This document shows positions 9,068 through 44,142 of a stretch of 52,459 nucleotides of DNA, one piece after another. This stretch comes from a virus: the UHGV virus genome UHGV-0060500; one strand, 5' to 3'. The translations under genes and the position numbers were made by a program. Every line of letters starts with the position of its first letter. Within the stretch, counting starts at the first letter, position 1. The notes below the pieces were generated by a model. The model was not told where the DNA came from and searched no databases. It worked only from the letters and a program-made list of their open reading frames with translations.

Positions 9068-9232
9068 TGGGTCGCCGACCTCAGTATGGAAGACCTCTAC
9101 CATTAGCCGCATACTCATAAGCATTAACCTCATGGCGAACTAAAACATTAACTGATAAACACAGAAGAAACCTGGCAGCTGGCTGATTAGGCCGCTTCTT
9201 TTCAGTTGATGCAGTGCAGAGATAGTGTCGCG

Positions 9233-9427: not shown

Positions 9428-9690
9428 CCCATTAGCATTAGATAGCAGTGACTGACCGCTGAACAGATCCCGCCGTTGCGTGATATTTGTTTTTCGCTTC
9501 GCAGCGACACCGGATTTTTAAAGAGCTTAAGGTAAGTGCCTTTTTGTGCCTTCAGTTATCTTTTTCCTTGCGTCTTTGCAAGTATGGCCTTACCTTGTCT
9601 GCAAGTTTACAAAATGGAATTTTAAGATCAAGGCTTAAAATACACGTTTTGTGACTTGCATCAAACTTTTTGAGGTTATAGGGTAGCGAC
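9428..9690. promoter_or_regulatory. Divergent immunity-region control region between the replication operon and the cI-like repressor
   Basis: 263 bp non-coding region between divergent operons; contains the repeated TGCAAGT elements and one copy of the dispersed GTTTACAAAATGG motif (9605-9617). Confidence 0.5.
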
Positions 9691-10369: not shown

Positions 10370-10838
10370 CCTGGGAAACACCAAAACGTAAACAGAAAAC
10401 GTTATTTATTATTTAAATATCAATGGCATATAAAATATTTTAAAAAAGTATACAAAATGGATTGACTCGATGTTTTACGGGGCGTATATTGCGAGTCAAA
10501 GGAAGGGCGCAGGTAACAAAAGCAACTTCCTGGCACTTTAAAAATCAGGCTTAACACCTTGTCAACCGTGGAGTAACTCCCCGATGGGGGACCGAAAGCG
10601 GCACTGATAACAAGGCGCATGGGGTGTTTAAAGCGTTACATCCCCCACGAAACCGCACGCAAGGCGACGAGTCAGCTTGCTTGGAGTGAGCAAGGTCACG
10701 CCGGGAACGGCGATGATTGCGGGATTAGTTGAAAGATGTTAAGCCGCTCATTAACAATCTGGTCAGCCGCTGGAAGTGCGGCAATTAACGAAGATGATTT
10801 TTTATTAAGTATCATCAAGGATATACGGAGATCAGATT
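10370..10838 (+). promoter_or_regulatory. Long GC-rich untranslated region (candidate early leftward-type promoter and antitermination/structured RNA region)
   Basis: About 470 bp without a plausible ORF, several GC-rich hairpins (CCCCGATGGGGG, GGGGTGTTTAAAGCGTTACATCCCCC), one dispersed-motif copy at 10448-10460. Confidence 0.3.
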
Positions 10839-18095: not shown

Positions 18096-18254
18096 AGTTT
18101 ACAAAATGGCGTCATTGCGTGATATGGATCACATAATGGCGCTTTTCGCCTTGTTCTGGTGTATCCATTTTGTATACTTCAAGCAAACAAAATGCTCTTT
18201 AAAAATCCGGCAGCGCTGAAATGCGTAGAAATCACCTGAAAAGGAGAGAGCATT

Positions 18255-25323: not shown

Positions 25324-25496
25324 ACGAGATCGAAGATGGCATCTATTTGCATAAGGTATTTGACATCGCCTATTTGGTAAGAGGCGAAGAGGTGATGATA
25401 AGGAATGAAGATGTTCCTTATTGGGAATTAAGCGACATGGATCGCGAACACATGCAAACATTGCTTGATAACGGACTGATATACAGAACTGCGTAA
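25320..25496 (+). CDS. Hypothetical protein (58 aa), paralogue of the previous ORF
   Basis: MNEIEDGIYLHKVFDIAYLVRGEE...; ATGA overlap with the upstream stop. Confidence 0.35.
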   Translation: MNEIEDGIYLHKVFDIAYLVRGEEVMIRNEDVPYWELSDMDREHMQTLLDNGLIYRTA

Positions 25497-25560
25497 AGCC
25501 GTATTTGTGGGTCGAAAACAAACAGATTAAAATATTACCTAACAATGCGAAACTGTAACT

Positions 25561-25586
25561 ACCCGGCCCAGTGCCGGGTTTTTGCT
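25561..25586 (+). terminator. Hairpin plus T-tract immediately upstream of the lysis cassette (candidate late-operon terminator/antitermination site)
   Basis: ACCCGGCCCAGTGCCGGGT followed by TTTTGCTTTG, 18 bp before the holin start. Confidence 0.4.
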
Positions 25587-30169: not shown

Positions 30170-30317
30170 GTTATTGATTATTATCAACTTCGAAAAATTT
30201 TCGAAGATGAACAATAATAATTCTCAATTAGCTACACAAAATCTGCCTCACAATCCCTCACGAATTTTTCTATTTTTCGCGTAGCAACGCGTAAACATGT
30301 ATTCAGGAGTAAACATT

Positions 30318-31688
30318 ATGCCATCCAATTTAGAATTGGCGGTTAATGCTGCCTTGTCTCAACGCCAGGCGGCCTTTGCCCGCTATGCAGCGGCACATCC
30401 GTTCACTATGGGGATAGATGCCAAACGTGATGCTGCGTGGAGTGAATACGGATTTAAAGAAGAGATCACGTATCACGATCTATACAAACTGTACAGACGC
30501 GGCGGCATCGCTCACGGTGCTGTAGAAAAGATTGTTACTACTTGCTGGCGCACCAAGCCAAAGATGATTGAAGGAACTGAAGACGAGAAAGCGAAAAAGG
30601 AAACACCGTGGGAAAGAGAAATCAAGAAGAAATTTAACAACAGATTTTGGCGCACTGTTGCTGAATGTGATCGCCGCCGCCTCATTGGTCGTTACTCTGG
30701 TCTGTTAATTCATATCAGAGATAACAAGCCGTGGGATCAGCCAGTGACAAAAGGCGTAGGCATTGCAAAATTTACCCCTGTGTGGGCTGGCGCTCTTACA
30801 CCGAAGGACTTCGAAGAAAACCCGGATAATGAAAACTATGGCCTGCCAACGTGGTGGGAATACAAAGAACGCATTAACAGTAAGACCATTGCCAGAAAGA
30901 TCCACCCTGACCGCATATTCATCTTTGGCGACTATTCTGATGATGTCATCGCTTTCCTTGAACCTTCCTACAACGCATTCGTATCACTGGAAAAAGTGGA
31001 AGGCGGTAGTGGTGAATCATTCCTGAAAAACGCAGCGCGTCAGCTTGCCATTTCGTTCGATAAAGAGATTGACTTCCGTTCCCTGGCTGCAACATACGAT
31101 TGCGACGTTACAGAGTTACGCGAAAGATTCAATGAGGCTACGGCTGAAATGAATAAGGGTAATGACGTAATGATGGCGTTACAGGGTGCGACAGTAAGCC
31201 CGCTGGTTACTGCCGTATCTGACCCGTCATCAACCTATGACGTAAACCTGCAAACCGCCGCCGCTGGTGTTGATATTCCAACCCGCATCTTGGTTGGGAA
31301 CCAGCAGGGAGAACGCGCATCAACCGAAGACCTGCGTTACTTCAACAGCCGCTGCATGACCCGCAGGGAGGAAATCGGTGGCGAGATTGAAGATCTGTTT
31401 CGCAAGATGGCAGATCTACGCCTTATCAGTATGCCAGTAGATGTATCAGTGCTATGGGACGACCTTAACGCCATGACCAAAGCAGAGCTACTGGAAGCCG
31501 CAGACAAGATGGCGCAAATCAATCAGGCTTGTTTGGCTACTGGTGAAGAAATATTTAGCGGCGATGAGATCCGCGAGGCTGCCGGATACGATGGCCCAGC
31601 CAGTGAAGTAGAAACGGAAGAGGATGACGATGATGAAGGTGAAGAAAATAATCAGGCGAATACCTCCAGCCGCGATAATGCCATCTAA
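30318..31688 (+). CDS. Portal protein
   Basis: About 456 aa following terminase, acidic C-terminus; SD AGGAGT before the ATG at 30318 (ORF-track start 30297). Confidence 0.7.
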   Translation: MPSNLELAVNAALSQRQAAFARYAAAHPFTMGIDAKRDAAWSEYGFKEEITYHDLYKLYRRGGIAHGAVEKIVTTCWRTKPKMIEGTEDEKAKKETPWEREIKKKFNNRFWRTVAECDRRRLIGRYSGLLIHIRDNKPWDQPVTKGVGIAKFTPVWAGALTPKDFEENPDNENYGLPTWWEYKERINSKTIARKIHPDRIFIFGDYSDDVIAFLEPSYNAFVSLEKVEGGSGESFLKNAARQLAISFDKEIDFRSLAATYDCDVTELRERFNEATAEMNKGNDVMMALQGATVSPLVTAVSDPSSTYDVNLQTAAAGVDIPTRILVGNQQGERASTEDLRYFNSRCMTRREEIGGEIEDLFRKMADLRLISMPVDVSVLWDDLNAMTKAELLEAADKMAQINQACLATGEEIFSGDEIREAAGYDGPASEVETEEDDDDEGEENNQANTSSRDNAI

Positions 31689-32574
31689 CACCGAAGACCC
31701 GACCATGACAGGGAAGTTAAGGTCGGGAGCTATTAAGCGTTTTAAAGCCTGCCTGAAGAAAGTTGCGGATCCGTATATCGCCATATTGGACAGAATCCAA
31801 TATAGCCTGGCTGTTAATAAGAAATACACCTTTCAGATTTACATGGATGAATTTCACGACATGCTGGAGGACGCAAGCGACATGATTGATGAGATATTCG
31901 AGTTAACAGACCCGGAAAACTTCTGGTTCTGGCAGAATTACGTGAAGGTGGCCTATCAGCGCGGCACGGCACAGGAATATGCCAACCTCGCTAACCAGTC
32001 TGTCACGTACTCAAGCGTTTATCCCGATGTATCTGCCGTACTATCAAGCACAACCTACCGCACGCGCCTTGCCCTGGTCCGTACCCGTGTATTTGAGGAA
32101 ATGCGCGGGCTGACAGCACAGATCAAAAAGGATATGGCCCGCCGACTAACTGAAGGCATGGCCCGTGGTTTAAACCCACTGGAAATAGCGCGCACATTGA
32201 ATCAGGAGACGCAATTACCGCTATACAGGTGTAAACGTATTGCTCGAACTGAAATATGCACAGCGTTACGCACAGCGCGTATGGATGAGGCAGAAGCGGC
32301 GACAGAAGAATTTAATCTGCGCACTATGCAAATGCACATTTCGGCATTATCACCGACTACCAGGCTATCGCACGCGCAGCGGCACGGTAAAACATACACC
32401 ATAGATGAGCAGCGCGAATGGTGGAGTAGATCCCCTAATTCAATTAACTGCAAATGTAGCACGATTACCGTATTAGTTGACGAAGACGGTAACATATTAA
32501 ACGAACGAATATTAGATCGGGCGCAAGAAAACTATAAAGTTGCGCACGCTAAATATGGCGAAGATTGGGAGTAA
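31624..32574 (+). CDS. Head morphogenesis protein (Mu F-like minor head protein); start uncertain
   Basis: 316 aa; C-terminal HGKTYT...CKCS pattern typical of the Mu F / SPP1 gp7 family; position after portal. Confidence 0.6.
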   Translation: MTMMKVKKIIRRIPPAAIMPSNTEDPTMTGKLRSGAIKRFKACLKKVADPYIAILDRIQYSLAVNKKYTFQIYMDEFHDMLEDASDMIDEIFELTDPENFWFWQNYVKVAYQRGTAQEYANLANQSVTYSSVYPDVSAVLSSTTYRTRLALVRTRVFEEMRGLTAQIKKDMARRLTEGMARGLNPLEIARTLNQETQLPLYRCKRIARTEICTALRTARMDEAEAATEEFNLRTMQMHISALSPTTRLSHAQRHGKTYTIDEQREWWSRSPNSINCKCSTITVLVDEDGNILNERILDRAQENYKVAHAKYGEDWE

Positions 32575-33893
32575 AAACCGTGAGTAAAGAACTGATTCAG
32601 GTTAATACCAAATTAACCGCTAATACCATACGCCGGGAAACTTATAACGGACGCGAGCACATTGTTGTGCCATCATATACGCTGCCATTCAATATCGTTA
32701 TGAATCGTGAATATTACCCGGAAGCTGAAATTATCGCTAATTACCAGTCACTGGAGGGTACGCTTGCCCCGCTGGGCCATCCTACCGTTGACGGTAAATT
32801 TGTTTCAGCATTTAGCCCGGAAGGATTAAACACGGGTTTTTGTGGTGCGTGGAACAGAAACGTTGAGTTACGCGGCAACCGTGTTTATGTGGAAAAATGG
32901 GTGGATGTGGAAACCGCCAGCCATTCAAGCCAGGGCCGCGAATTATTAGCCCGACTGGAAGCACTGGAGAAAGGAGAAAGCAAAGATCCTATCTGGTCGT
33001 CCGTCGCTGTATATCGCCAGCGTATGCCAGCCACCGAAAAAATGAAAGCCCAGGGTGCTGACCATGTAGTGAAAATCATGTCGATCGACCATGACGCTAT
33101 CTTGCTGCATGAGCCGCCAGCCGCTTCGCCGGAACAGGGCGTAGGCTTAATGGTTAATACCGACCAGGCGAAGCCGTTAATGGCGGTGGCGATGAAAGAA
33201 AACAGCTACAGAACACTTGAGAAACAATTAACAGACGCGGCGCGGGATTTATTCCCTGATGCTGATTATGTGTATGTGGTGGACTTCACTGATAAAGAGG
33301 TGACGATCGCCACTAATGCGGAAAGTGCTCAAGTTTGCGCATATGAAAAACAGGCTGATAAAATTATTCTCAATAATGGCGAGCTTGCAACCAACGAGGA
33401 AAGTAAATCATGGTTTGCTCAGTTCGCTGAACACCTTTCTAATCTTTTCTCCCTGAATGAAAAAATTAAGGCCAATAAATCGGAGGACGATCCCATGCCT
33501 TTGACCAAAGAAGAACGCGCCGAACTGGTAAAAGAAATTAACGAAGGCTTAGCCGCCAACATCGCTAATGCAGTAGCAGAGGCATTAAAACCAGTACAGG
33601 CAAGCGTAGAAGAATTACAGACCAACCAAGAAGAATTACAGACCAACCAAGAAGAATTACAGACCAACCAGAAAGCAATTAAAGAAGAAATTGCAGCAAA
33701 CGCAGATAAAGAAGTAGCAGAAAAACGCGCCGCAGTAGCAAAAGTTCACGGCGAAATTGTTGCTAACGCATTAAGCGGTGAAGCGTTAGACGCAATGTTT
33801 AAATCCCTGGGTAAAGCAGCACCAATGGCAGCAAACTCAGCCGCTGGTGGAAATAAACCTGCCACCCCTGACATTAACAACTATTTCGCATAA
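32565..33893 (+). CDS. Putative head scaffolding protein with coiled-coil C-terminal half
   Basis: 442 aa; position between the morphogenesis and capsid genes; (EELQTNQ)x3 heptad tandem repeat. Confidence 0.45.
   Translation: MGVKTVSKELIQVNTKLTANTIRRETYNGREHIVVPSYTLPFNIVMNREYYPEAEIIANYQSLEGTLAPLGHPTVDGKFVSAFSPEGLNTGFCGAWNRNVELRGNRVYVEKWVDVETASHSSQGRELLARLEALEKGESKDPIWSSVAVYRQRMPATEKMKAQGADHVVKIMSIDHDAILLHEPPAASPEQGVGLMVNTDQAKPLMAVAMKENSYRTLEKQLTDAARDLFPDADYVYVVDFTDKEVTIATNAESAQVCAYEKQADKIILNNGELATNEESKSWFAQFAEHLSNLFSLNEKIKANKSEDDPMPLTKEERAELVKEINEGLAANIANAVAEALKPVQASVEELQTNQEELQTNQEELQTNQKAIKEEIAANADKEVAEKRAAVAKVHGEIVANALSGEALDAMFKSLGKAAPMAANSAAGGNKPATPDINNYFA
33609..33671 (+). repeat. 3 x 21 bp perfect/near-perfect tandem repeat GAAGAATTACAGACCAACCAA inside the scaffold gene
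   Basis: Direct tandem repeat read from the sequence; in frame (EELQTNQ). Confidence 0.8.
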
Positions 33894-33903
33894 GAGGTGA
33901 ATT

Positions 33904-34305
33904 ATGGCCCGTTTTCGTCGTGTAAATATTGACGGCAAATCCGTTACTGAAACAGCAGTATCTGCCGCAGCACTTAAGCCGGGTACTCCGGTAAAAATGG
34001 CGTCTGGTAAATTCGCTGCCGCAACTGATACCACAGGACGTATTTATGTTGTTAACCCTGCATACCATGAAGGTTTAGGCATTGAAGATGCGATCCCGGT
34101 TGGTCATTCCGTGGTTGCTGACTACGCAGAAGAAGGACGTGAATTTGCGATTCTGCTTCCTGAAGGTGCTTACACCAAAGACGCTGCCATCACCATTGGT
34201 GAAGGTGGCTTTAAATTGGTTACATCTGATGAACCTGTTTTCGCTTTCTGCCAGGAAACTGTAACCCTTGAAGCGGCTGATTTTGTACGTGTCCGCGTTG
34301 CATAA
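33904..34305 (+). CDS. Putative head decoration / capsid accessory protein
   Basis: 133 aa, immediately upstream of the major capsid gene. Confidence 0.4.
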   Translation: MARFRRVNIDGKSVTETAVSAAALKPGTPVKMASGKFAAATDTTGRIYVVNPAYHEGLGIEDAIPVGHSVVADYAEEGREFAILLPEGAYTKDAAITIGEGGFKLVTSDEPVFAFCQETVTLEAADFVRVRVA

Positions 34306-34324
34306 TAATAAGAGGTGAAAAACT

Positions 34325-35377
34325 ATGTTGTTTAATAAACACAACCTTGCTACCAACAGCCGCATTCGTGCCCAGTGGGATCACCTTTGGGCGCAGCGCA
34401 ACATGTTCAATGATCAGGACGGCGCTCTTATTGCCGCAAATATGGCAAACATGACCGCTGACATCCTGGCATGTAATGCCGTTGGCGGCTTCGATCAGGA
34501 GTTCTGGAAAGCTGTCGATAACCAGATTATCGAAATGAGCACCGAAGAGACTGGTATTGAAATCGTAAACGATTTGATGGCTGTGCAAACCGTATTGCCA
34601 ATCGGTAAAACCGAGAAAATGTACAGCGTATCCGGTGATATTAACGATGAAGTTGTCGTTAGTATCGATGGTCAAGCCCCGCATGGCTTCGATCACACTG
34701 AATATGGCAGCGATGGCGACCCGATCCCGATGTTCGCAGCGGGTTACGGTGTCAGCTGGCGTCATTCCGAAGGTCTGAAAACTGTTGGTATTGACCTTGC
34801 ACTGGATAGCCAGCGCCTGAAACTGCAAAAATTCAACAAGGCCCGCGTTGATTATTACCTTAACGGTAACGCAAAAATCAACGTCAACGGTAAACCTGGC
34901 CAGGGTATTAAAAATCACCGCAATACCCAGCAACTAGTCATGACCTCCGAAGATCTCACCACTGACGGATTCGATGCTCTCATCAAATTCTTCACCACTG
35001 GTGCATTCGGTGTTATGGCCCGCAACAACCGCGTTGACCAGTATGATCTCATGTGGGTGTCACCTGAAATTATGGCTAACCTGGCAGCGCCGCACATTGC
35101 AAACGGGACTGTCGTAGGCAGTGTTCTGAATATCGTTAAACCGTTCATTCCGGTTAAAGAAATCCGTCAGACCTATGCACTGAAAGGCAACGAGTTCATT
35201 GCCTATCAACGCCGCCGCAACGTCATTACCCCGCTGGTTGGTATGACTACTGGCGTAGTGCCTCTGCCGCGCACCATGCCTACCGATAACTACAACTTCA
35301 AAATCATGTCTGCCGAAGGCTTACAAATCACCTGCGACATGCTGGGCCGTTCCGGTGTTGTTTACGGTCACAAATAA
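34325..35377 (+). CDS. Major capsid protein
   Basis: 350 aa; position, size and terminator directly downstream. Confidence 0.75.
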   Translation: MLFNKHNLATNSRIRAQWDHLWAQRNMFNDQDGALIAANMANMTADILACNAVGGFDQEFWKAVDNQIIEMSTEETGIEIVNDLMAVQTVLPIGKTEKMYSVSGDINDEVVVSIDGQAPHGFDHTEYGSDGDPIPMFAAGYGVSWRHSEGLKTVGIDLALDSQRLKLQKFNKARVDYYLNGNAKINVNGKPGQGIKNHRNTQQLVMTSEDLTTDGFDALIKFFTTGAFGVMARNNRVDQYDLMWVSPEIMANLAAPHIANGTVVGSVLNIVKPFIPVKEIRQTYALKGNEFIAYQRRRNVITPLVGMTTGVVPLPRTMPTDNYNFKIMSAEGLQITCDMLGRSGVVYGHK

Positions 35378-35394
35378 TTTCGTATTTCCTGTAA

Positions 35395-35424
35395 CTCCCC
35401 GGCGCGATGCCGGGGATTTTTTTT
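35395..35424 (+). terminator. Rho-independent terminator after the major capsid gene
   Basis: CTCCCCGGCGCGATGCCGGGGA followed by TTTTTTTT. Confidence 0.7.
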
Positions 35425-35442
35425 GTATGTGGAGCAAACAAA

Positions 35443-35829
35443 ATGGTCACTACAGAACAGGCGCGGGAATATCTTGAAAGCCAGGGTATTGACCTGCCAG
35501 ACATTATCTTATCTTTGCTGGTGGAGCAGGCAAATAGCGTTAATGAATGCCTTGATGCCAACTATCCGGCCTCCACTGCAACATTGATTCAGCTTTATCT
35601 GATTGGCCTGTTAGGACTAAGCCAGGCTGATAAATACGTTTCCTCGCAGACTGGGCCGAACGGTGCGAGTCAGTCATACCGCTATGTCGATTTCAACAAA
35701 CGATGGAAGGCGGCCTATTCGTTGCTTTACTCCATTGATAAACATCACTGTACAGCCGAACTGATTCCAGCAGATCCAGAAAACACCGCGCACGCAGGGC
35801 TTTGGATAGGTAAAAGTGGGAGGATGTAA
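35443..35829 (+). CDS. Head-tail connector / DNA packaging protein
   Basis: About 128 aa after the capsid terminator; SD GGAG. Confidence 0.45.
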   Translation: MVTTEQAREYLESQGIDLPDIILSLLVEQANSVNECLDANYPASTATLIQLYLIGLLGLSQADKYVSSQTGPNGASQSYRYVDFNKRWKAAYSLLYSIDKHHCTAELIPADPENTAHAGLWIGKSGRM

Positions 35830-35831
35830 CA

Positions 35832-36017
35832 ATGTGGAACGACCTGACATTACCGGATCCGTTATTGCCGAAACTGTTTACCCGCGTATGGGTGAAGACA
35901 GACACCGGGCGACAGGTAGCCGCCTACCTCAATGATGCTGGCGAATGGGTAATTCTTTGCCCGCGCGTGGCGAAAACCCATCCGAAAATTGTTAAATGGA
36001 GCTATGGCTATGAGTAA
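35832..36017 (+). CDS. Hypothetical head-tail joining protein (61 aa)
   Basis: ORF in the structural operon. Confidence 0.4.
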   Translation: MWNDLTLPDPLLPKLFTRVWVKTDTGRQVAAYLNDAGEWVILCPRVAKTHPKIVKWSYGYE

Positions 36018-36378
36018 GATCGCGAGATTCAGTTACAAGGCATTAGCCACCATTTACCCCGTAACGCGTGACGACTGGACAAACTCCGACGTATACGGTG
36101 CGCCATACCTGGTAGATTGTGCATGGGAGCGTACTGACGGAACCGCAACAGACGCAAACGGGAATGAGGTTAGCAACACGATAACCGTATATACCGAACT
36201 GCTTCACAAGATGCAGCCAGTGCAGCTCCCGGAAAAAGGATGGATGCTTGCCACTGGTGACACTACTGCTATTTCCGACCCGCTGGCGGCTGGGGCCAAC
36301 TTTATAACCGGAATCGTTGAATGGGACATGAGCATGTTTAACGACACGCCGGATTATAAGATCGTAACAGGGGGTTAA
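35989..36378 (+). CDS. Head-tail joining protein (about 125 aa)
   Basis: ORF in the structural operon; start uncertain (36004/36010). Confidence 0.45.
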   Translation: MLNGAMAMSKIARFSYKALATIYPVTRDDWTNSDVYGAPYLVDCAWERTDGTATDANGNEVSNTITVYTELLHKMQPVQLPEKGWMLATGDTTAISDPLAAGANFITGIVEWDMSMFNDTPDYKIVTGG

Positions 36379-36380
36379 TT

Positions 36381-36845
36381 ATGCCTATTAAGGGCGTTAA
36401 ACGCGTCAGGGAGCGATTGAAGCAGGAGCTAAAGGAAATTACAGACAGAAAAACGCACGATGTATTATGGCGAGTGGGGCTTGTTGCTGGTGGATTTGCT
36501 GCAAATATGACGCCGATCGATACTGGTTTTTTAATTAACAGTCAATTCCAGTATATAGGTGACACTCCTGAGGGTATGCAATTACGTCTGGGTTATACCG
36601 CCCGCTACGCTGAATGGGTGCATGACATGCCGGGCACATTAAAAGGCCAGCCGCGCGAACATTTCGGGAAAACAAATAACCTTTCAGATTTCGGGCCGAA
36701 ACAGGTAATTGAGTTCGGCGGCGGTACTGGAAAAGGTAAATATTGGGACCCAAACGCGGAGCCGGAATTTTTGCGCAAGGCATTCGAAGATCCAAACAAC
36801 GCCGACGATATTTATAAAGAGATTGTAGAAGGTTACAAAACATGA
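36381..36845 (+). CDS. Tail component (HK97 gp10-like)
   Basis: 154 aa in the head-tail joining block. Confidence 0.45.
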   Translation: MPIKGVKRVRERLKQELKEITDRKTHDVLWRVGLVAGGFAANMTPIDTGFLINSQFQYIGDTPEGMQLRLGYTARYAEWVHDMPGTLKGQPREHFGKTNNLSDFGPKQVIEFGGGTGKGKYWDPNAEPEFLRKAFEDPNNADDIYKEIVEGYKT

Positions 36846-37228
36846 AACGCAGCGAAGTATACGACGAAATAAGGGATTGGATTAAATCCCACGGATACGA
36901 TGAGGGCTATATTTTGCAGGCCCGTTTCTGGAATGAGCGGAGCAATTCGAATAATGACAGATACATCGTAATCCAGCAAAACGGCGGCGCGGCGGGAGAA
37001 GAGGCGATAACCCGTGACTATTTTCGCATCCTGGTTATTTCAGCGCGTAACGATGCAAATATTAGTGAAGTGGAAGACCTCGCCGACGCAATACGTCAAA
37101 GTATGATAACCGAGTATAAAACTGATAAAATTACACACATGAAGCCAGTTGGCGCTATTCCCGCAATGCAGACGAGAGAAGGGCGCTTTATTTTTACCGT
37201 AGCTTTTCAAACCATAATATCCAGATAA
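36842..37228 (+). CDS. Tail completion / terminator-like protein
   Basis: 128 aa immediately upstream of the major tail gene. Confidence 0.45.
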   Translation: MKRSEVYDEIRDWIKSHGYDEGYILQARFWNERSNSNNDRYIVIQQNGGAAGEEAITRDYFRILVISARNDANISEVEDLADAIRQSMITEYKTDKITHMKPVGAIPAMQTREGRFIFTVAFQTIISR

Positions 37229-37241
37229 GAGGTAACTAAAC

Positions 37242-37718
37242 ATGTCTCAGACTTGCGAAAAAGGCACGTTTACAGGCCGTGACGTTGCTGTATTCTTCGC
37301 TATCGCTTGTCCAAATGCGAAGCCGGAAGCTGAAGCGTACAAAGCGTTAGGCATGATGCGTGGTAAAACACTTTCCGTTGAATGGGAAACCGCTGACGCC
37401 ACCGCCGATAAATCAGCCGATTACACGAAAGAATCAATGGTTACTTACAAATCCGTTTCTTTCTCCGGCGACGGTGTGTCCCGCACTGAAGAAATCCATA
37501 ATCAGAAAGCGCTGAAACGCCACGTAATTACGCCAGGTGAAACCACCGGATCACAACCTTATGTATGGCTGAAGATCGTTTCTCCTGTAGACGTAACTGA
37601 AGGCCCATTCCTTTGCACTTCCTTTAAAGAAGAAGATCCGCATGATGATGTTTCCACCTGGTCTATTGAGTGCGAAAGCGCTGGCAAGGTAACGGTAGGC
37701 GACGTTCCGCCAGCATAA
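37242..37718 (+). CDS. Major tail protein
   Basis: 158 aa; followed by a terminator and a chaperone-like gene, upstream of the tape measure. Confidence 0.6.
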   Translation: MSQTCEKGTFTGRDVAVFFAIACPNAKPEAEAYKALGMMRGKTLSVEWETADATADKSADYTKESMVTYKSVSFSGDGVSRTEEIHNQKALKRHVITPGETTGSQPYVWLKIVSPVDVTEGPFLCTSFKEEDPHDDVSTWSIECESAGKVTVGDVPPA

Positions 37719-37735
37719 CAGCCAATATTAACAAT

Positions 37736-37761
37736 CGGGGCCATTTGGCCCCTTTTCTTTT
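37736..37761 (+). terminator. Rho-independent terminator after the major tail gene
   Basis: GGGGCCATTTGGCCCC followed by TTTTCTTTT. Confidence 0.65.
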
Positions 37762-37773
37762 AAGGTGAATACT

Positions 37774-38472
37774 ATGATCCATGTTCGTACAGGACAATTT
37801 GCTGCCGTGGTGAACGGTAAGCGCTATGAGTTTAATCCTTGCTTTGCTGCGATGGCTAAAATCGGCAACGATAGTGAGCTTGTCGAATATTTCGCACTTA
37901 TCCACGGCGGCAAATATCCATCACGATTGCCAGCAGATCCAGACCTACGCAATCGCATTCTGGCGCGGTGTTATGGTGAAATAGTTAAGACATCAATGCA
38001 CATCCTGAAATGTTGCTCAGACGACGAAATAGGCCCGTTATTGGGCGAATGCTGGTTTACTCCTTCGGGTAAGTTAAAGTTAAAGCCCGGATTAATGCCG
38101 ATCGAGGATATCATCACGCTTGCGCAGCACTGCATGTACCACGGTCTTATTGGTGATGGCCCGGAAGAAGAGTCCGGGGAAATCCCGGAAGGGGAATATA
38201 AGCCGACTTTTAACGTCCTTGAATTCGTCTATTCTGCCGTTGCTCACCTGGGCTTGTCAGAATCGGAAGCATGGAATATGACAATGACCGGATATAGGGC
38301 CGCTGTACGCGCTAAAACGCCGCCAGACGAAAGAAACGAGAAAAGCAAGCCAAACATTCACATAAATAAACGTGCTTATGACGAGCAAATGGAGGCCGCT
38401 AAAAAGGCACTAGAAAGAATGAAAAATCGTGAGCAAGAAAAGCCCGGTAGATCCGGGCGTTTTGCTAATTGA
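37774..38472 (+). CDS. Putative tail assembly chaperone
   Basis: About 233 aa between the major tail and tape measure genes; SD AAGGTGA. Confidence 0.45.
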   Translation: MIHVRTGQFAAVVNGKRYEFNPCFAAMAKIGNDSELVEYFALIHGGKYPSRLPADPDLRNRILARCYGEIVKTSMHILKCCSDDEIGPLLGECWFTPSGKLKLKPGLMPIEDIITLAQHCMYHGLIGDGPEEESGEIPEGEYKPTFNVLEFVYSAVAHLGLSESEAWNMTMTGYRAAVRAKTPPDERNEKSKPNIHINKRAYDEQMEAAKKALERMKNREQEKPGRSGRFAN

Positions 38473-38839
38473 AATCTTTAATTGCTGTACCTGGTGAACT
38501 GTGTGTGATTGTATTGTATACAGACTTTGCCTTACTGCGATCTTTCCATTCTTTTAGGATGCAGTTATCAAACTTTGCGATAACCCTTGAAGGGGATAAT
38601 TCTTCAACATCCATGTAAGTAAATCCTATCGTGCTGGTTACTGAATACCATACGTGATAACTATAATTACCGTCATGCTCGATTCTTTGTGGTTCCCCCA
38701 TTATTTTATTCACTTGCTCACAAGTCATTCCAACTTGCAAATTTTTATCAGCTAACTTAACGAAATCAGTTGATCTTGCGCACCCTGTAAGAGCTAAAGC
38801 CATAACACCAATGAGAACCGCTTTGATTATTTTTTTCAT
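38465..38839 (-). CDS. Lipoprotein (124 aa), antisense moron in the tail module
   Basis: Signal peptide with lipobox LTGC (MKKIIKAVLIGVMALALTGC). Confidence 0.6.
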   Translation of the reverse strand: MKKIIKAVLIGVMALALTGCARSTDFVKLADKNLQVGMTCEQVNKIMGEPQRIEHDGNYSYHVWYSVTSTIGFTYMDVEELSPSRVIAKFDNCILKEWKDRSKAKSVYNTITHSSPGTAIKDFN

Positions 38840-38849
38840 GATTTACCCC

Positions 38850-39509
38850 TTAATTCCAGTTGCAAGCGTTTTTCACTTTGTCGATGTGGTTATAAAGACC
38901 ATCAATGTTAAACACTGCTTTCTCAATGTCGCCAGCTTCCGGCACTACTTCAATGATGAATTGTTTTTCGTTAACCAGTTTTTTAATCATTGGGATGGCT
39001 TTTTTGCCGTCCCATAATCCAAGAGCTTTATAATTAGTTGACCGCCACCACTCAGTAGCTACAGCTTTGTGAACGCCGATCCGGTAGTTAATATAAGTAG
39101 TGTCCCCGGCGTCAGTTACATGGTGTGACCATGCTACGAACATTTTTGTTTTATTACCCTGGCAAGCGATTGTTAATACCGGTTTATTCTTATCCTGTGC
39201 CTTCAGTGTCGGGAAAGCATCAAGACTTCCGCTGAATTGTTCTGCTTTCACAAAAAGGAATACGTTTTTTGCGTCCTGCATATCATCTTTTCTTTCAACT
39301 ACAAGCCACTGTTTACCAGCATTTTCTTTTTCTAACTGTGCATCGTATGCGGCTTGTTTTGCTTGTTGTTCTGCAAGCCATTTAGCATTTTTCTCTGCTA
39401 ATGCTTGTTGCTCTTGATTGGTCACTATAGGCGCTTTTTCATTATCCTCATTGCAACCAACCAGACCCAATACCGCCGCAATCATTGCCACTTTTGCTAA
39501 CCGTTTCAT
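38850..39509 (-). CDS. Lipoprotein (219 aa), antisense moron in the tail module
   Basis: Signal peptide with lipobox LVGC (MKRLAKVAMIAAVLGLVGC); Gln/Ala-rich linker. Confidence 0.6.
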   Translation of the reverse strand: MKRLAKVAMIAAVLGLVGCNEDNEKAPIVTNQEQQALAEKNAKWLAEQQAKQAAYDAQLEKENAGKQWLVVERKDDMQDAKNVFLFVKAEQFSGSLDAFPTLKAQDKNKPVLTIACQGNKTKMFVAWSHHVTDAGDTTYINYRIGVHKAVATEWWRSTNYKALGLWDGKKAIPMIKKLVNEKQFIIEVVPEAGDIEKAVFNIDGLYNHIDKVKNACNWN

Positions 39510-39636
39510 AACCCACCACGCTAACTTGATTTACTGACCATTCCCTTTAGCTTCCTTATACAAAATGGAGTCGTTGAAGTAAAGCCATTTTGTATAAAAT
39601 AGATACACAGATCACATTTTTGCATGAGGTTAAATC

Positions 39637-41979
39637 ATGGCTACCAGTGTAGGTACAATTTATTACGAAGTTGATGCGAAAACTGGTCAACTTCTCGTTG
39701 CACAACGACAGGCAGACCAGGCCTTTGATCGTATAGAGCGCGGCGCAAAACAGGCTGACCGCCAGGTAAACACCCTGAAAACATCCATCAAGGCACTGAC
39801 CAGGGTTATCCATCTGCTAATTGCTGCGGAGGCTGTGCGCCAATTTATGGATATGGCGGAGCAAGCAAAAATGCTTCGCGTAAAAATCAAAATGCTTACG
39901 GGCGATGCGGAGTCCGCCGGACGGGTTTTCGACGGCCTGAAAGCAATATCCAGGGAGACGGGGCAGAGCCTGAAAGATACTGGCGAATTATGGCAAGGCC
40001 TGGCTATCTCACTAAAAAACACCTCCGCTACGGAAGGGCAATTGCTTAACCTGGTTGGCACTATTCAGAAAATGGGTGCATTAGGCGGCGCGTCAGCGGA
40101 ACAGATGTCTAACTCAATGCGTCAATTCCGTCAGTCTATCGACGGCGGTGTTCTTCGTGCCGAAGAATTTAACAGCCTGCTTGAAAATACGCCGACCATC
40201 GTACAAACAATGGCCCGCCATATGGGATTATCAATGGGCCAGTTCCGCGCCGAAATGCTGGACGGCAAGATCACGGCTGAAAGGATGGTTAACGCAATAC
40301 AGGCGGCTACGCAGGAAACAAACGATAAGTTTGCTCAGTTGCCGCGCACATCCGGCATGGCTATCAATGAGCTTAAAGTAGAAATTATGGGCCTTGTTGA
40401 GCAGTTGGATGATCTTTTTGGCGTGTCAGATGGCGTTGTTTCAGCTATCGACTTGATCACGAAAGGCGTTAAAGGGCTTGGCGATGGCGCTAAATTCGCT
40501 AAAACCTGCTTCGACACACTCAAAACGGCTGGTAGCGAATTTATCGACATGTTTGATGATGTGGCTGTTAAGGCTGGAGAGGTGGCAGAGAAGATCATCG
40601 CAATGGTGACGCCAATCAAGGCGCTAATGGATGGCTATAAATGGATGAAGGAGGTAGTAGGAGAGCAAACCGACGAATATAACAGCAACTACGAGAAGAA
40701 ATACGGGAAGACCGTTGGCAAGGTCATGCAACTACAGGATGATCTGACCGCAGCAATCCAGGCTACAGAAGAAGCAAGGAAAAATGAACAGAATGCTGCC
40801 AATGACGGAGCGATTACCGGATTCGACAAGCCAGTAGACAAGCCGAAAAAACAGAAAAAAGAGAAGAAATCGGAAGCTGATCGGCTTGGTGACAAAGGTA
40901 TAAGCGTTTCTGATCAGTATAACAAAGACGCCGCCGCCATGCGCAAAGCGTTGGAGAACGGCAAGGCCATTGATGCTGCATTTGCCCAGGGTAAAATCAC
41001 GCTCCTTGAGTACCGCGCCGCGCAAAAAGGGATCGGCAAGGAACTGAAAGAAGAATTAGCACAAATTCCGGTAGATGAATTGCGTGATAAATGGTCACAA
41101 ATAGTAAGCCCGATGGATCAGCTAAAAGGCGAAGTTGACCCCATCCAGCAGGCGCAAAATGAATGGGCCATCCGTAAGCAAATGCTTATAGACCTGGGCG
41201 CTACTGAAGCGCAACAGAAACAGGAATTGTTAGCCTATGAGCAACAGATCCGCGATCTGAAATGGGAACAATGGCAGGCGCAAAGCGACACAAACGGCCT
41301 TATCGGTGATTGTGTTAATGGCCTTAAAGGCGGAATGAGTAATGCGCTTGTTGGCCTGTTAAACGGCACTCAATCATTGAGTGATGTTTTTGCTAACTTA
41401 GGAAGCAATATACTCGGCAATATCGGTAACAGACTCTCAGACATAGCTGCAAACTGGATAGCAGATCAGATCATGATGGAGACACAAAGCAAGGCCACGC
41501 AAACAAGTACAACAGCAAGCGCGGTAGCAGCTCAGGGAAGCATTGCTGCGGCGGCGGCCCCAGCAGCGGCGGCAACTGCGGCGTCAACTGGCGGTAGCTG
41601 GGCGGCGGCTGGTTCGGCGGCGCTCACTGCGATCATGTCGCTGGCTACGTCAATTTTCGGCGGCGGTCGCTTTAATGGTGGTAGCGTCATTGGTGGTAAT
41701 ATGTACCGCGTAGGGGAACACAACAGGCCGGAGCTATTCCAGACATCTAACGGCAATCAATATATGATCCCTGGCGAGAACGGCAGAGTTATTCCTGGCC
41801 GTGATATTGGCGGCGGTGGCGGTATTAGTATGCCTGTCAGTATCAGCATTCAGACCACGAACGGATTCAGCGACGAAGACAGCCGCAGACTTGAATTAAC
41901 AATGGAACGTGTAGCCATGAAAATGATAACAAGGGAATCTCAAAGACCAGGCGGAATGTTGCAACCTCGCCGCAAATAA
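39637..41979 (+). CDS. Tail tape measure protein
   Basis: 780 aa, helical N-terminal two thirds, Gly/Ala-rich C-terminal region; position before gpM/L/K/I/J homologues. Confidence 0.8.
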   Translation: MATSVGTIYYEVDAKTGQLLVAQRQADQAFDRIERGAKQADRQVNTLKTSIKALTRVIHLLIAAEAVRQFMDMAEQAKMLRVKIKMLTGDAESAGRVFDGLKAISRETGQSLKDTGELWQGLAISLKNTSATEGQLLNLVGTIQKMGALGGASAEQMSNSMRQFRQSIDGGVLRAEEFNSLLENTPTIVQTMARHMGLSMGQFRAEMLDGKITAERMVNAIQAATQETNDKFAQLPRTSGMAINELKVEIMGLVEQLDDLFGVSDGVVSAIDLITKGVKGLGDGAKFAKTCFDTLKTAGSEFIDMFDDVAVKAGEVAEKIIAMVTPIKALMDGYKWMKEVVGEQTDEYNSNYEKKYGKTVGKVMQLQDDLTAAIQATEEARKNEQNAANDGAITGFDKPVDKPKKQKKEKKSEADRLGDKGISVSDQYNKDAAAMRKALENGKAIDAAFAQGKITLLEYRAAQKGIGKELKEELAQIPVDELRDKWSQIVSPMDQLKGEVDPIQQAQNEWAIRKQMLIDLGATEAQQKQELLAYEQQIRDLKWEQWQAQSDTNGLIGDCVNGLKGGMSNALVGLLNGTQSLSDVFANLGSNILGNIGNRLSDIAANWIADQIMMETQSKATQTSTTASAVAAQGSIAAAAAPAAAATAASTGGSWAAAGSAALTAIMSLATSIFGGGRFNGGSVIGGNMYRVGEHNRPELFQTSNGNQYMIPGENGRVIPGRDIGGGGGISMPVSISIQTTNGFSDEDSRRLELTMERVAMKMITRESQRPGGMLQPRRK

Positions 41980-41983
41980 ACTA

Positions 41984-42012
41984 AACCCCGGTGCAATGCC
42001 GGGGTTATTTTT
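41984..42012 (+). terminator. Rho-independent terminator after the tape measure gene
   Basis: AACCCCGGTGCAATGCCGGGGTT followed by ATTTTT. Confidence 0.7.
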
Positions 42013-42065
42013 CGTATTTATAAACGACCATTCCGCGCGATATATCCCCTTTCGAATATCTCGAC

Positions 42066-42320
42066 TCACTTATGAGTGCCTTTCACGCCACATAACTTGT
42101 TATAGGCATGGTGCTCAACAATTAACCAAACCTTCAAATCTTCGCTAAACAGCCTCCAATCAAGATTGATATCCATTTTGTATCCGTAACCGTCGCGTAA
42201 CTTTTTGGGGTAAACTTCTTTTCTCAGAAAGGCTTTAAGTAATTCCTTACCTTTCTTGATGATCCGGTCCTGTGCGTTTTTCTGTGCTTTCAGATTTCTG
42301 TCAATCGCTACCAGTTTCAT
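42066..42320 (-). CDS. Small basic protein (84 aa), possible RelE/YafQ-like toxin; antisense moron
   Basis: C-terminal ...DW...GTHK loosely resembles the YafQ C-terminal pattern (EPDW...RTGTHAALF) as recalled; low certainty. Confidence 0.4.
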   Translation of the reverse strand: MKLVAIDRNLKAQKNAQDRIIKKGKELLKAFLRKEVYPKKLRDGYGYKMDINLDWRLFSEDLKVWLIVEHHAYNKLCGVKGTHK

Positions 42321-42337
42321 AACTCACCCCATCATCC

Positions 42338-42493
42338 TTAGTTAAGTGCCTTCAGGAAGAAGTCCCGGTATTCATCTTCTTTCGCATTCATCATGAATTG
42401 ACCGTATTTGAATGCGTCGTCGAAACCCTTAACGATTGCTATTTCCACTTGTTCGAATGCGTTATTTAGCATTACTACTACATAGCGTTTCAT
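42338..42493 (-). CDS. Small protein (51 aa) upstream of and coupled to the 84 aa gene (possible antitoxin)
   Basis: ORF ending 17 bp before the next start; MKRYVVVMLNNAFEQVEIAIVKGFDDAFKYG... Confidence 0.35.
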   Translation of the reverse strand: MKRYVVVMLNNAFEQVEIAIVKGFDDAFKYGQFMMNAKEDEYRDFFLKALN

Positions 42494-42660
42494 TTTGGGC
42501 CTCCTTCGTTGGTACTACTTTCTTCTTGCTTTCTATATACATCTTGTTGCGTGCTATGTGAAGCCATTTTGTAAACTAGCTATAATCATTGTGACAATGA
42601 TCTTATTTTTCGCGTAGAAGCGCGTAAAGATATATACAAAATGTAACTTGTGGGGGTTTT

Positions 42661-43014
42661 ATGCCGGAAGTGTTCAGATGGACGCCGCAAAGAAGCTACA
42701 GCGTGACCAGGAAGCCAGACGTATCTGTTGTTAAGCTGGGCGATGGTTATGAGCAAAGACAGGTAAAAGGTATCAATCCATTGCTTGATAGCTACACCCT
42801 GGTGTTTAAAGGCAGTAGCGCCGGATGTGGTGATGGTGGAAACGTAGCAATCCAGGCGGAAGCATTCTTGAGGGCGCGCGGCGCGGTCGAGGCTTTTTAC
42901 TGGTCGCCGTCAATGGATAACGTGCAAAGGCTTTTTGTCTGTCGGCAATGGAGCATGACTAAAGACGGGCCTTTGTACACGCTAAACGCAACGTTTGAGC
43001 AAGTTGTTGGCTAA
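42661..43014 (+). CDS. Minor tail protein M (lambda gpM homologue)
   Basis: 117 aa; FRW...GDGYEQRQ...FYWSP...TFEQVVG matches lambda M closely as recalled. Confidence 0.85.
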   Translation: MPEVFRWTPQRSYSVTRKPDVSVVKLGDGYEQRQVKGINPLLDSYTLVFKGSSAGCGDGGNVAIQAEAFLRARGAVEAFYWSPSMDNVQRLFVCRQWSMTKDGPLYTLNATFEQVVG

Positions 43015-43211
43015 TGGGGGTTGTTATGTACGGGACTTGTGTAGTTGACAAAACTTACGCTTTTACATTGTTTGACGACTATGAGATCAACGACCTTACT
43101 GTAAAAGCTGACAACGGCGATATATGGTATCTTCACGACGTTGGTGATGGGTACGTTGGGTGTAGATCCCGGGAAGGGAAGGAGGTTTTATTTTTGGTTG
43201 ATGGCGTATAA
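43014..43211 (+). CDS. Hypothetical protein (65 aa)
   Basis: ORF coupled to gpM and followed by a terminator. Confidence 0.4.
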   Translation: MGVVMYGTCVVDKTYAFTLFDDYEINDLTVKADNGDIWYLHDVGDGYVGCRSREGKEVLFLVDGV

Positions 43212-43213
43212 AC

Positions 43214-43243
43214 ACGACCCCGCGCGAAGCGGGGTTATTTTTA
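43214..43243. terminator. Bidirectional rho-independent terminator
   Basis: GACCCCGCGCGAAGCGGGGTT followed by ATTTTTATT; between convergent genes. Confidence 0.65.
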
Positions 43244-43367: not shown

Positions 43368-43616
43368 CTATAAGTTATCACGCAGATAATTAACGCCCTT
43401 ATCAGTGACGAATGAATGGTTAACCTGGTTTTCATCCGTCATGATGATGAATAACTTTTCATGTAGGTATTTCGCTTTCGGGTACAGCGTTAAACAGACC
43501 TGGTACAGTATCCCGCGCTCAATCAGCAAATCAATAAATTCGTGTTCATGATAACCGATGAGGCGGGCGGCCTGTTTCAACGTGTACACATAATCACCGT
43601 GATTGCGCCGCCCCAT
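43368..43616 (-). CDS. Small HTH-like protein (82 aa), antisense moron
   Basis: YTLKQAARLIGYHEHEFIDLL resembles a helix-turn-helix. Confidence 0.4.
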   Translation of the reverse strand: MGRRNHGDYVYTLKQAARLIGYHEHEFIDLLIERGILYQVCLTLYPKAKYLHEKLFIIMTDENQVNHSFVTDKGVNYLRDNL

Positions 43617-43625
43617 GTTGCCGCC

Positions 43626-43973
43626 TTATTTATCGAATGCTGAAAGGTTATCGATACAGAAATCTTTCGCCGCTTTTTCGTATTCGCGTTTTGCTTCTGG
43701 ATCGTCAGCCGGGAAACCTTTTGCGTGTATTTCACCAGGGCAAGACTGGTCCATAGAATCTGCATAATAAGCAGTGAAGCTACCATTAATATCTTTCGGG
43801 TTCATATCTTCCACCTCATCAACTATCTGTACCGGATTAGCAGCATATTTCACTGGATGGCCTAAACTACATTCAAGAATCCTGCCTTCTTCCAGGGCTA
43901 CTTCTTCGCTATCAAATAATCCGAAACACTCCTTGCTACCACTTAACCACACATCAAGACTGTATTTTTTCAT
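43626..43973 (-). CDS. Hypothetical protein (about 115 aa) with N-terminal region paralogous to the upstream small gene
   Basis: MKKYSLDVWLSGSKECFGLFDSEEVALEEGRILECSLGHPVKY; SD GAGG before the ATG at 43973. Confidence 0.45.
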   Translation of the reverse strand: MKKYSLDVWLSGSKECFGLFDSEEVALEEGRILECSLGHPVKYAANPVQIVDEVEDMNPKDINGSFTAYYADSMDQSCPGEIHAKGFPADDPEAKREYEKAAKDFCIDNLSAFDK

Positions 43974-44142
43974 TTTTGTTAGCCTCATATTTGACAGGTT
44001 CGATCTGGTATCCCAAAAGGCGGTCATCCTCAGCAAGTAAAAGCGCGTCAACCAATGCTTCACCCTCGTCGTCATACAGGGCGATAACCTTTTCCCTACC
44101 GTCTGTCATGAATACCGTCAACTTCCATAGCTTTTCAGTCAT
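43954..44142 (-). CDS. Hypothetical small protein (about 62 aa), paralogue of the N-terminus of the next gene
   Basis: MTEKLWKLTVFMTDGREKVIALYDDEGEALVDALLLAEDDRLLGYQIEPVKY; SD GGAGGTG. Confidence 0.45.
   Translation of the reverse strand: MTEKLWKLTVFMTDGREKVIALYDDEGEALVDALLLAEDDRLLGYQIEPVKYEANKNEKIQS

Follow-up and report, generated by a model that had tools for sequence, protein, structure and literature searches.

A conserved 23-nucleotide element in the leaders of the portal and gpM genes of mEp021-like phages, with a leader stem-loop and a DNA operator as its leading interpretations

The mEp021-like phages were described in 2025 as the mEpimmI group (PMC11893012). They are reported to be as frequent in the human gut as lambdoid phages. 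The paper deals with their repressor, nut sites, integrases and receptors, and describes the clade as having an N-like protein, Gp17, and, unusually, three nut sites. Within the text covered by term searches, the same paper makes no mention of the element that is the subject of this work and says nothing on control inside the late operon. The DNA analyzed here is the virus genome UHGV-0060500, a stretch of 52,459 nucleotides that is referred to at its full length as the window. It represents a temperate siphophage of Escherichia coli that is 85-91% identical to mEp021, mEp010, related phages and MagusPhagus, and by its sequence the phage belongs to the mEpimmI group. The element in question is a short G+C-containing sequence next to a run of T residues, and it is found once before the portal gene and once before gpM, the gene for minor tail protein M.

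On the plus strand, the sequence TTTTT-CGCGTAG-NNN-CGCGTAAA (in run-on form, TTTTTCGCGTAG-NNN-CGCGTAAA; 23 nt) occurs exactly twice in the window. The two copies and the genes that follow them are:

30273..30295, plus strand: portal-site element read from the sequence as TTTTT-CGCGTAG-CAA-CGCGTAAA (TTTTTCGCGTAGCAACGCGTAAA), with CAA as the central triplet
30318..31688, plus strand: portal gene (PF06381 Phage_portal_3, E = 7.5e-19), annotated as portal in mEp021 and MagusPhagus
42606..42628, plus strand: gpM-site element read from the sequence as TTTTT-CGCGTAG-AAG-CGCGTAAA (TTTTTCGCGTAGAAGCGCGTAAA), with AAG as the central triplet
42661..43014, plus strand: gpM, minor tail protein M (PF05939, E = 1.2e-27)

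The two copies are identical at 21 of 23 positions, and both mismatches lie inside the central triplet (CAA versus AAG). Identity reaches two bases further to the left (TA) in both copies, and to the right there is a looser similarity that can be written TAAA-S-AT-R-TAT. When up to three mismatches were allowed, two matches were obtained in the 52.5-kb window compared to 0.01 expected from 100 shuffles, and the direct repeat CGCGTA-N2-8-CGCGTA was found window-wide in these two places only. A first-pass annotation made from the sequence had proposed near-identical CGCGTA-repeat elements before these two genes, and both the two plus-strand copies and the identities of the genes hold. The similarity that it described stands as well, but the length is 23 nt and not the 24 bp that it gave, and its interval for the first copy (30274-30297) was off by 1-2 nt. 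The distance from the element to the start codon is 22 nt for the portal gene (ATG at 30318) and, as annotated, 32 nt for gpM (ATG at 42661), and at both sites the element lies in the untranslated leader, 9-23 nt 5′ of the Shine-Dalgarno sequence. The placement of both copies behind a gap or a moron boundary was also correct: the terL stop at 30169 and an insertion of approximately 70 bp precede the portal copy, and a minus-strand toxin-antitoxin moron (42066-42493) precedes the gpM copy.

Sites were collected without using the element as bait, and this collection consisted of 50 loci recovered via the portal protein, 31 clade loci recovered via gpM and 20 metagenome loci recovered via flanking anchors. 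The element was present in every one of them (50/50 portal sites and 31/31 gpM sites in viral contigs, and 20/20 gpM sites in metagenomes). It was also found at both homologous positions in mEp021, mEp010 and MagusPhagus, so that the absence from close relatives that the first-pass annotation had named as the observation against its proposal was not seen. A scan of IMG/VR with the exact pattern returned approximately 45 contigs of 50-57 kb, most of them with two copies about 12 kb apart, together with three unrelated chance matches (L036, L081, which is a picorna-like RNA virus, and L091). Among 5,426 complete E. coli genomes about 35 carry the element, always within a prophage of the mEp021 clade; the gpM-site prophage sequence was read in 11 of these 35, and all 11 carry it. 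In 185,579 species-representative genomes the exact pattern was found twice, which is the chance level, in unrelated metagenome-assembled genomes. The nearest outgroup, the ES18-like Salmonella phage S107 (portal 59% and gpM approximately 68% identical), has no element at either position, and the element was absent from every other phage group examined. A capsid-based scan of the species-representative genomes for intermediate relatives found none, and in the phage database the portal identity drops from at least 85% straight to 61%.

In terms of conservation, the nucleotide diversity of the element without its central triplet was 0.002 at the portal site and 0.016 at the gpM site, compared to 0.18-0.24 in the adjacent spacers, 0.26-0.32 at the third codon positions of the neighbouring genes and 0.05-0.06 at their codon positions 1+2. 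The element is under strong purifying selection, which exceeds that on codon positions 1+2. Because the element is present in all loci collected without bait, differs so sharply in diversity from its surroundings, and is absent from the outgroup and, but for chance-level matches, from the species-representative genomes, a real, functional and clade-specific cis-acting control site is well supported by the sequence comparisons. This agrees with the annotated possibility of a regulatory site.

The element can be described in two ways, and the two descriptions fit equally well. As plus-strand RNA it is a hairpin, AUUUUU-CGCG, a hexaloop UAGNNN, CGCG, a bulged U and AAAGAU. As DNA it is a tandem repeat, CGCGTAG-N3-CGCGTAA, whose units are 10 bp (one helical turn) apart next to a T-run. 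The central triplet (positions 13-15) varies freely among CAA, AAG, AAT, AGG, AAA, CTA and CGA; portal sites almost always have CAA, and among gpM sites AAG is seen most often. Swaps were observed in which AAG occupies the portal site (L004, L024) or CAA the gpM site (L059) while the flanks keep their own identity, and these may reflect very short, rare gene conversion between the copies or a limited set of tolerated triplets. Rare variants include TAG to TGG, C6 to T or A, G7 to A, C16 to T, changes in the T-run and one 1-nt central deletion (L172, L173). Positions C8 G9 T10 G12 and G17 C18 G19 T20 A21 A22 A23 were invariant in all site instances read. The RNAalifold consensus is a 10-bp bulged hairpin, in which the four G-C pairs have a pairing probability of 0.72-0.96 in the natural context, with a predicted fold of -6 kcal/mol at the portal site and -10.6 kcal/mol at the gpM site. 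The natural variants all fold on the plus strand at -5 to -11 kcal/mol: C-to-T variants form G.U pairs on that strand only, and those tested fold weakly on the minus strand (approximately -3 kcal/mol). In the CACG and AGCG/TGCG variants pairing is regained by a shift in register, with the bulged U taken into the stem. Standard pairs make up 94% of the sequence-by-pair cells for the proposed pairing, compared to 24-78% when the pairing is slid by 1-3 columns. A search of the window for the hairpin shape found none besides the two copies of the element.

The gpM copy lies in a short transcription unit of its own, whose features are as follows:

41984..42006, both strands: bidirectional terminator-like hairpin after the tape-measure gene, at the position homologous to mEp021 TERM_10
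42066..42493, minus strand: moron with a 51-aa open reading frame (ORF; 42338-42493) followed by a ParE-like toxin gene (42066-42320; PF24732, E = 9e-12; homologue named ParE family toxin-like protein by PGAP)
42534..42562, minus strand: candidate leftward promoter for the toxin-antitoxin moron, TTCACA (42562-42557), 17 bp, TATATA (42539-42534), both hexamers conserved in the 48-sequence alignment
42564..42575, plus strand: CCATTTTGTAAA, a copy of an over-represented motif, which fills the P_M spacer and forms an inverted repeat with 42633-42644
42581..42586, plus strand: TATAAT, putative -10 of the rightward promoter P_M, invariant in 48 unique gpM-site sequences whose neighbouring positions vary
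42596..42601, plus strand: AATGAT, a -10-like hexamer 4 nt before the T-run, with variants N-A-R-N-W-T in which A2/T6 is almost invariant; of uncertain meaning
42633..42644, minus strand: CCATTTTGTAWA motif in inverted orientation, directly 3′ of the gpM element
43014..43211, plus strand: 65-aa ORF after gpM, probably co-transcribed with it (phrog_3249; clade-restricted)
43216..43236, both strands: bidirectional terminator-like hairpin closing the unit of gpM and the 65-aa ORF, at the position homologous to mEp021 TERM_11 and TERM_12

A -35-like hexamer, GTGAAG (42558-42563), lies 17 bp before the TATAAT and matches the consensus at 3/6 positions. From these sequences we infer that P_M is a conserved sigma-70-like promoter with a start near 42593, arranged back-to-back with the leftward moron promoter. 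The element begins 19 nt (24 nt to CGCG) downstream of the TATAAT, and because the start would be near 42593, it would occupy approximately +13 to +35 of P_M. The CCATTTTGTAWA inverted pair flanks both P_M and the gpM element, and the two terminator-like hairpins at 41984-42006 and 43216-43236 bracket the unit of gpM and the 65-aa ORF. At the position of AATGAT, E. coli KKa019 has AGATAT, and the portal site has GAATTT or AAGTTT at a similar distance. The 65-aa ORF is known from 16 protein clusters (at least 68% identity), the named ones from E. coli, and it co-occurs with the element; the ES18-like relatives do not have it, and there is no ORF between M and L in Salmonella phage S107. Its AlphaFold model is all-beta with low confidence (pLDDT 58), and no Foldseek match to the model was found in the PDB. 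In one prophage (L082, IMGVR_UViG_2695420423_000006, reverse strand 8725-9198), the gene of a 157-aa homing endonuclease of the HNH/AP2 type has entered precisely between gpM and its leader, and it takes over this leader with the element retained. Another HNH gene is located between I and J in mEp021.

The portal site differs in its surroundings, and the features next to the element there are these:

30170..30240, plus strand: insertion of approximately 70 bp that separates the terL stop from the element in about 15 of 50 viral-contig portal sites (approximately 30%)
30262..30272, plus strand: conserved T-rich tract (GAATTTTTCTA) entering the portal element, from the alignment of 38 unique portal-site sequences
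30296..30317, plus strand: near-invariant portal leader CATGTATTCAGGAGTAAACATT, diversity 0.007

The insertion, possibly a mobile or remnant sequence of small size, holds a near-perfect palindrome TCAACTTCGAAAA/TTTTCGAAGATGA at 30184-30210 as well as inverted repeats that are AT-rich; in most relatives it is missing, and the terL stop is then 34 nt before the element. Conservation starts sharply at the T-rich tract after 35 nt of variable spacer (diversity 0.18), and from this tract through the portal ATG 57 nt are almost invariant in the 38 unique sequences. The sequence GTAAACAT occurs twice here (30291-30298 and 30309-30316). The most likely start of the portal gene is the ATG at 30318, with the Shine-Dalgarno sequence AGGAG at 30305-30309; an in-frame ATG at 30297 directly abuts the element and has no Shine-Dalgarno sequence. 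The promoter and terminator scan of this region found neither in convincing form. A promoter at the portal site appears to be absent, because the best -10 candidate, CACAAT, varies to CACAAC in about one quarter of the genomes and has no -35. The first-pass suggestion that the element delimits structural sub-operons therefore has to be divided: it suits the gpM copy, which is in the leader of a promoter-bearing, terminator-bracketed short unit, but not the portal copy, which in most relatives follows terL by 34 nt with no convincing promoter or terminator. In RefSeq E. coli prophages, PGAP gives the portal homologues the name anti-CBASS protein Acb1 family protein (for example NZ_CP015228.1 at 1731393). 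The portal protein is Phage_portal_3 by Pfam, and the protein of the window has no match in NCBIfam release 20; the Acb1 name looks like a misleading propagated label.

Our tentative preference, to which we assign somewhat less than even confidence, is that the element is a stem-loop in the plus-strand mRNA leader that is recognised by a factor and controls the fate of the mRNA segment beginning with portal or gpM. We infer RNA as the medium, the binding of a factor and the outcome of that binding as follows. The element would act in the plus-strand late transcript, within the untranslated leaders of portal and gpM, where a trans-acting factor would read the stem-loop sequence-specifically through its invariant stem, the loop UAG and the flanking U and A runs. 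Binding would set the fate of the downstream segment through processing, 5′-end stabilisation or translation efficiency. At gpM the element would be carried by the P_M transcript, and at the portal site by the read-through late mRNA from terL. Several observations are consistent with this reading. There are only two copies, both on the coding strand, in the same orientation and within 22-32 nt of a start codon; the freely variable positions and the tolerated 1-nt deletion (L172, L173) fall in the loop; at the portal site a DNA operator would find no credible promoter to control; and the stretch from the element to the portal ATG is near-invariant, as expected of a translated leader.

Other observations weigh against a stem-loop acting in RNA. 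No base pair showed changes on both sides, and the covariation score equalled that of shuffles. The folding z-scores of the leaders were not significant, and the natural variants did not preserve the structure significantly better than random mutants with one or two changes (rank fractions 0.08-0.9). In two prophage backgrounds the canonical register is lost through the G7-to-A change, and a pair of tandem CGTAR units accounts for the positions that never vary no less well than the helix does. The endonuclease insertion in L082 implies that close coupling of the element to the gpM ribosome-binding site is not obligatory. No candidate RNA-binding protein was found, and no Rfam covariance model reached its gathering score anywhere in the window. 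Some of the variant prophages may be defective, which would weaken the argument from variants for RNA and DNA alike. In a narrower form of the stem-loop proposal, one phage or host factor would bind the hairpin shared by the two leaders and coordinate portal and gpM synthesis as a small post-transcriptional regulon within the Q-antiterminated late operon; we regard this form as rather improbable. The 65-aa ORF is a possible partner in such a regulon. The portal protein and the tail-tip protein gpM are taken here to be low-copy components of the virion.

The element is situated within a late region in which the order is lysis genes, Sf6-type terS, terL, portal, head genes, tail genes, tape measure, M, L, K, I and J. 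Minus-strand morons break this region ahead of the tape-measure gene, M and L and again behind J. Those in the tail operon encode a likely toxin-antitoxin pair (42066-42493), an antirepressor fragment of KilAC/ANT type and its partners (43368-44075), and a protein resembling the type VI secretion-associated VasI next to a small ORF that is lipoprotein-like (38465-39509). The phage encodes a lambda-type Q (PF03589), and upstream of the holin gene there is a PR′-like promoter with a short terminated leader (approximately 25506-25579):

approximately 25506-25533, plus strand: PR′-like late promoter TTGTGG-N17-TAAAAT, followed by an AACAAT pause-type hexamer that resembles a -10, with a terminator at 25561-25579 just before the holin gene

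Three alleles of the PR′ -35/spacer region are found among the relatives despite near-identical Q proteins (86-97%). The three mEp021 nut sites, nutL, nutR1 and nutR2, are recognisable in the window at 9495-9535 (minus strand), 10745-10790 and 18190-18225. They consist of a boxA, GCTCTTTAAAAA or CGCTCATTAACAA, located 7-11 nt before a GNRA-type boxB hairpin, and the hairpins here are CGCU-GCGA-AGCG, CGCU-GAAA-UGCG and CCGCU-GGAAG-UGCGG.

A separate 12-mer, CCATTTTGTWWA, is also over-represented in the window, with 17 matches at up to one mismatch versus 2.2 expected and none of 100 shuffles reaching 17. The positions, on both strands, are 5385, 9606, 10449, 18098, 18165, 23389, 23446, 39557, 39585, 42564, 42633, 44157 and 51630. 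They fall in regulatory gaps, namely in the immunity region by the PL- and PR-like promoters, just 5′ of nutR2, and 5′ of the tape-measure, M and L genes, and copies of the motif often form inverted pairs whose spacing differs. The motif probably serves as a repressor operator or is a promoter core used in common (PL, TTGATC-N16-TAAACT; pre-nutR2, TTGTTC-N17-TATACT). The mEpimmI paper (PMC11893012) does not describe it.

The main rival to a stem-loop acting in RNA is a DNA operator, in which the two CGCGTAR units 10 bp apart and the T-run would be bound by a phage-encoded DNA-binding protein. At gpM, a protein at +13 to +35 of P_M would block initiation or elongation, and at the portal site it would form a roadblock or an architectural site in the late operon, for example one that silences the structural genes in lysogens. 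The direct repeat and its helical phasing are real, and conservation extends to positions that would be unpaired in RNA (TAG, the bulged T and the T-run). The invariant positions are the two CGTAR cores, and those stem positions that do vary (C6, G7, C16) are the starts of the repeats; the natural variants show no significant selection for RNA structure, and the gpM site is just 3′ of a conserved TATAAT, between two copies of another operator-like motif. We rate an operator as somewhat less probable than the stem-loop. The portal site has no promoter to regulate, a 1-bp change in the repeat spacing is tolerated (L172, L173), and the third copy that autoregulation would call for is not found near any regulator gene. 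Nor was a candidate protein of the helix-turn-helix or ribbon-helix-helix type identified: among 10 of the approximately 19 small ORFs between Q and holin that were scanned, no Pfam family was above threshold, and the 65-aa ORF models as all-beta with low confidence. Variant gpM sites also coexist with a canonical portal site in the same genome, so that there is no co-variation with a factor.

The remaining explanations are less probable still. A processive-antitermination site in the late-operon RNA, either an additional nut/boxB-like hairpin for Gp17 or a factor-independent site like HK022 put, would allow reading through the internal head-tail and tail-tip terminators. The clade has its N-like Gp17 and three nut sites (PMC11893012); each copy stands before a block with terminator-like hairpins inside it or at its end, and the element has a G+C-rich hairpin and a purine-rich loop whose variant UGGAAG resembles the nutR1 boxB loop. 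The usual loop, UAGNNN, differs however from the GNRA-type loops of boxB, the upstream TCTYATTTTT matches boxA poorly, and Q together with the PR′-like promoter and its terminator before the lysis genes already supplies late antitermination, so this explanation is very unlikely. Still less can be said for activator-dependent late promoters, in which a shared activator site would stand before the head and tail blocks as it does for Mu (C) or P2/186 (Ogr/B). A short identical sequence does stand before two virion-assembly blocks, and the direct repeat resembles the lambda CII site TTGC-N6-TTGC, but the geometry fails: with a site centred near -41 or still more distant on the 5′ side, transcription would have to begin within the portal ORF or at the gpM ATG. 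There is no conserved -10 at the right distance on either strand, the consensus scan found no promoter that uses the element, and the conserved TATAAT at gpM is upstream of the element and not downstream. The least probable explanation, which we regard as scarcely credible, is the recombination site that the first-pass annotation had offered beside the regulatory one, namely a sequence at module boundaries that serves homology-driven module exchange or is the target of a site-specific recombinase. The 11-6-11 layout is superficially like that of tyrosine recombinase sites, the triplet swaps, which are the sole hint of exchange in the data on the annotated claim, could reflect gene conversion, and the spacer before the portal site is an indel hotspot. 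Exchange between direct copies around 12.3 kb of essential genes would however be lethal, the genomes examined all have one and the same gene order, there is no recombinase gene next to the element, and the absence of the element from other phage groups leaves no exchange between groups. Selection on 20 positions, in collinear genomes that are 85-100% identical, is also unlike a passive patch of homology.

A number of known types of site were tried for the element and rejected. Scans of both regions found no sigma-70 promoter that uses the element, and by hand no -10 with A2/T6 was found at a usable distance. For an intrinsic terminator, the T-run comes before the hairpin and the A-run after it on the plus strand, the hairpin is followed by A5 on the minus strand, and the scan was silent. 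For a nut site, there is no CGCTCTTTA-like boxA 7-11 nt upstream (TCTYATTTTT or TTTCTATTTTT is found instead), and the loop is UAGNNN, or AGNN if U.A or U.G closes it, compared to GCGA, GAAA and GGAAG in the nut sites. A promoter at which Q is loaded was rejected on two grounds: the PR′ of the phage lacks the element, and at both sites the -10-like hexamer is upstream of it, the reverse of the PR′ geometry. The match to GCGTAAACA in the mEp021 PR′ spacer is not conserved over the three spacer alleles, and an apparent third copy at the late promoter, the GCGTAAANNNRTAT match at 25491, is the variable 3′ end of an ORF and not conserved. A host transcription factor is unlikely, as a search with the exact pattern found no chromosomal copies outside prophages of the clade. 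A NagC/Mlc operator has the form TT-CGCG-N-CGCG-AA, with a CGCG spacing of 1 nt compared to 6 nt in the element, and the CpxR box (GTAAA-N5-GTAAA) and the PhoP, NarL, Fur, IHF and RfaH ops sites have a partial likeness that in each case leaves the invariant CGCG unexplained. A toxin-antitoxin operator does not fit, with the element approximately 45-65 bp upstream of the leftward -35 and the portal copy far from any toxin-antitoxin module. No sequence complementary to the element was found elsewhere in the window as an antisense or small-RNA partner, and its pairing with the start-codon region (UUAUGC) is not conserved in relatives. The mini-ORFs (ATG-TAA after the gpM element, the ATG at 30297 and a minus-strand peptide) are either not conserved between the sites or have no start codon. 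A looser structural pattern searched in the viral contigs gave noise only.

At two key points of the virion-assembly genes no other non-coding sequence is conserved as strongly as the element, which would therefore indicate that the late genes are controlled at a further level besides antitermination by Q. Should it turn out to be an RNA operator that is bound by protein and common to portal and gpM, it would be an unusual case of a temperate siphophage coordinating the translation of its assembly proteins; as an ordinary operator or stabiliser hairpin, it would be mainly an aid to annotation. It is also an easy experimental handle, being short and present in two copies with natural variants, and mEp021 is genetically tractable and forms a lysogen of E. 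coli K-12.

Compared to known systems, the element is a clade-specific cis-regulatory element without the tested defining features of nut sites, terminators, late promoters or Q-binding sites. The comparisons are drawn from general knowledge, except for the nut sites (PMC11893012). With lambda-type nut sites, including the mEp021 nutL, nutR1 and nutR2, it shares a G+C-rich leader hairpin in a phage with N-like antitermination, but unlike them it has no boxA and no GNRA-like loop, and it is located in a late operon served by Q. The sites of Mu C and of Ogr, B and Delta in P2, 186 and P4 are similar as one short sequence before head and tail blocks; here, however, the distance from element to gene is incompatible with a downstream promoter, and the phage uses a lambda-type Q with a single PR′-like late promoter.

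By analogy of function, three groups would stand nearer. As DNA, the element would resemble downstream operators: like lac O1, the lambda CII site TTGC-N6-TTGC and Arc/Mnt-type operators it has direct repeats 10 bp apart, with the gpM copy at +13 to +35, but unlike these its portal copy has no promoter, and its spacing can shift by 1 bp. As RNA, it may be compared to 5′ stabiliser hairpins and processing sites such as the ompA leader, T4 gene 32 and the T7 RNase III sites. Its stem is far shorter than an RNase III substrate and its sequence conservation much stricter than a stabiliser needs, but the intercistronic position, the U-rich tract immediately 5′ of a stable hairpin, and the placement where an mRNA segment begins whose products are required in other amounts than those of the upstream genes are all shared. 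The likeness would be closest to leader hairpins that are bound by protein, namely those of T4 gp43 and RegA, the coat-protein operators of MS2 and Qbeta, and the Com site on the mom mRNA of Mu. Unlike these, the hairpin of the element excludes the Shine-Dalgarno sequence and the start codon, is shared by two unrelated structural genes, and has a helix without covariation support. In common with them, it is a small stem-loop 5′ of the ribosome-binding site with a bulged base and a conserved loop, and its sequence is conserved beyond what structure would require.

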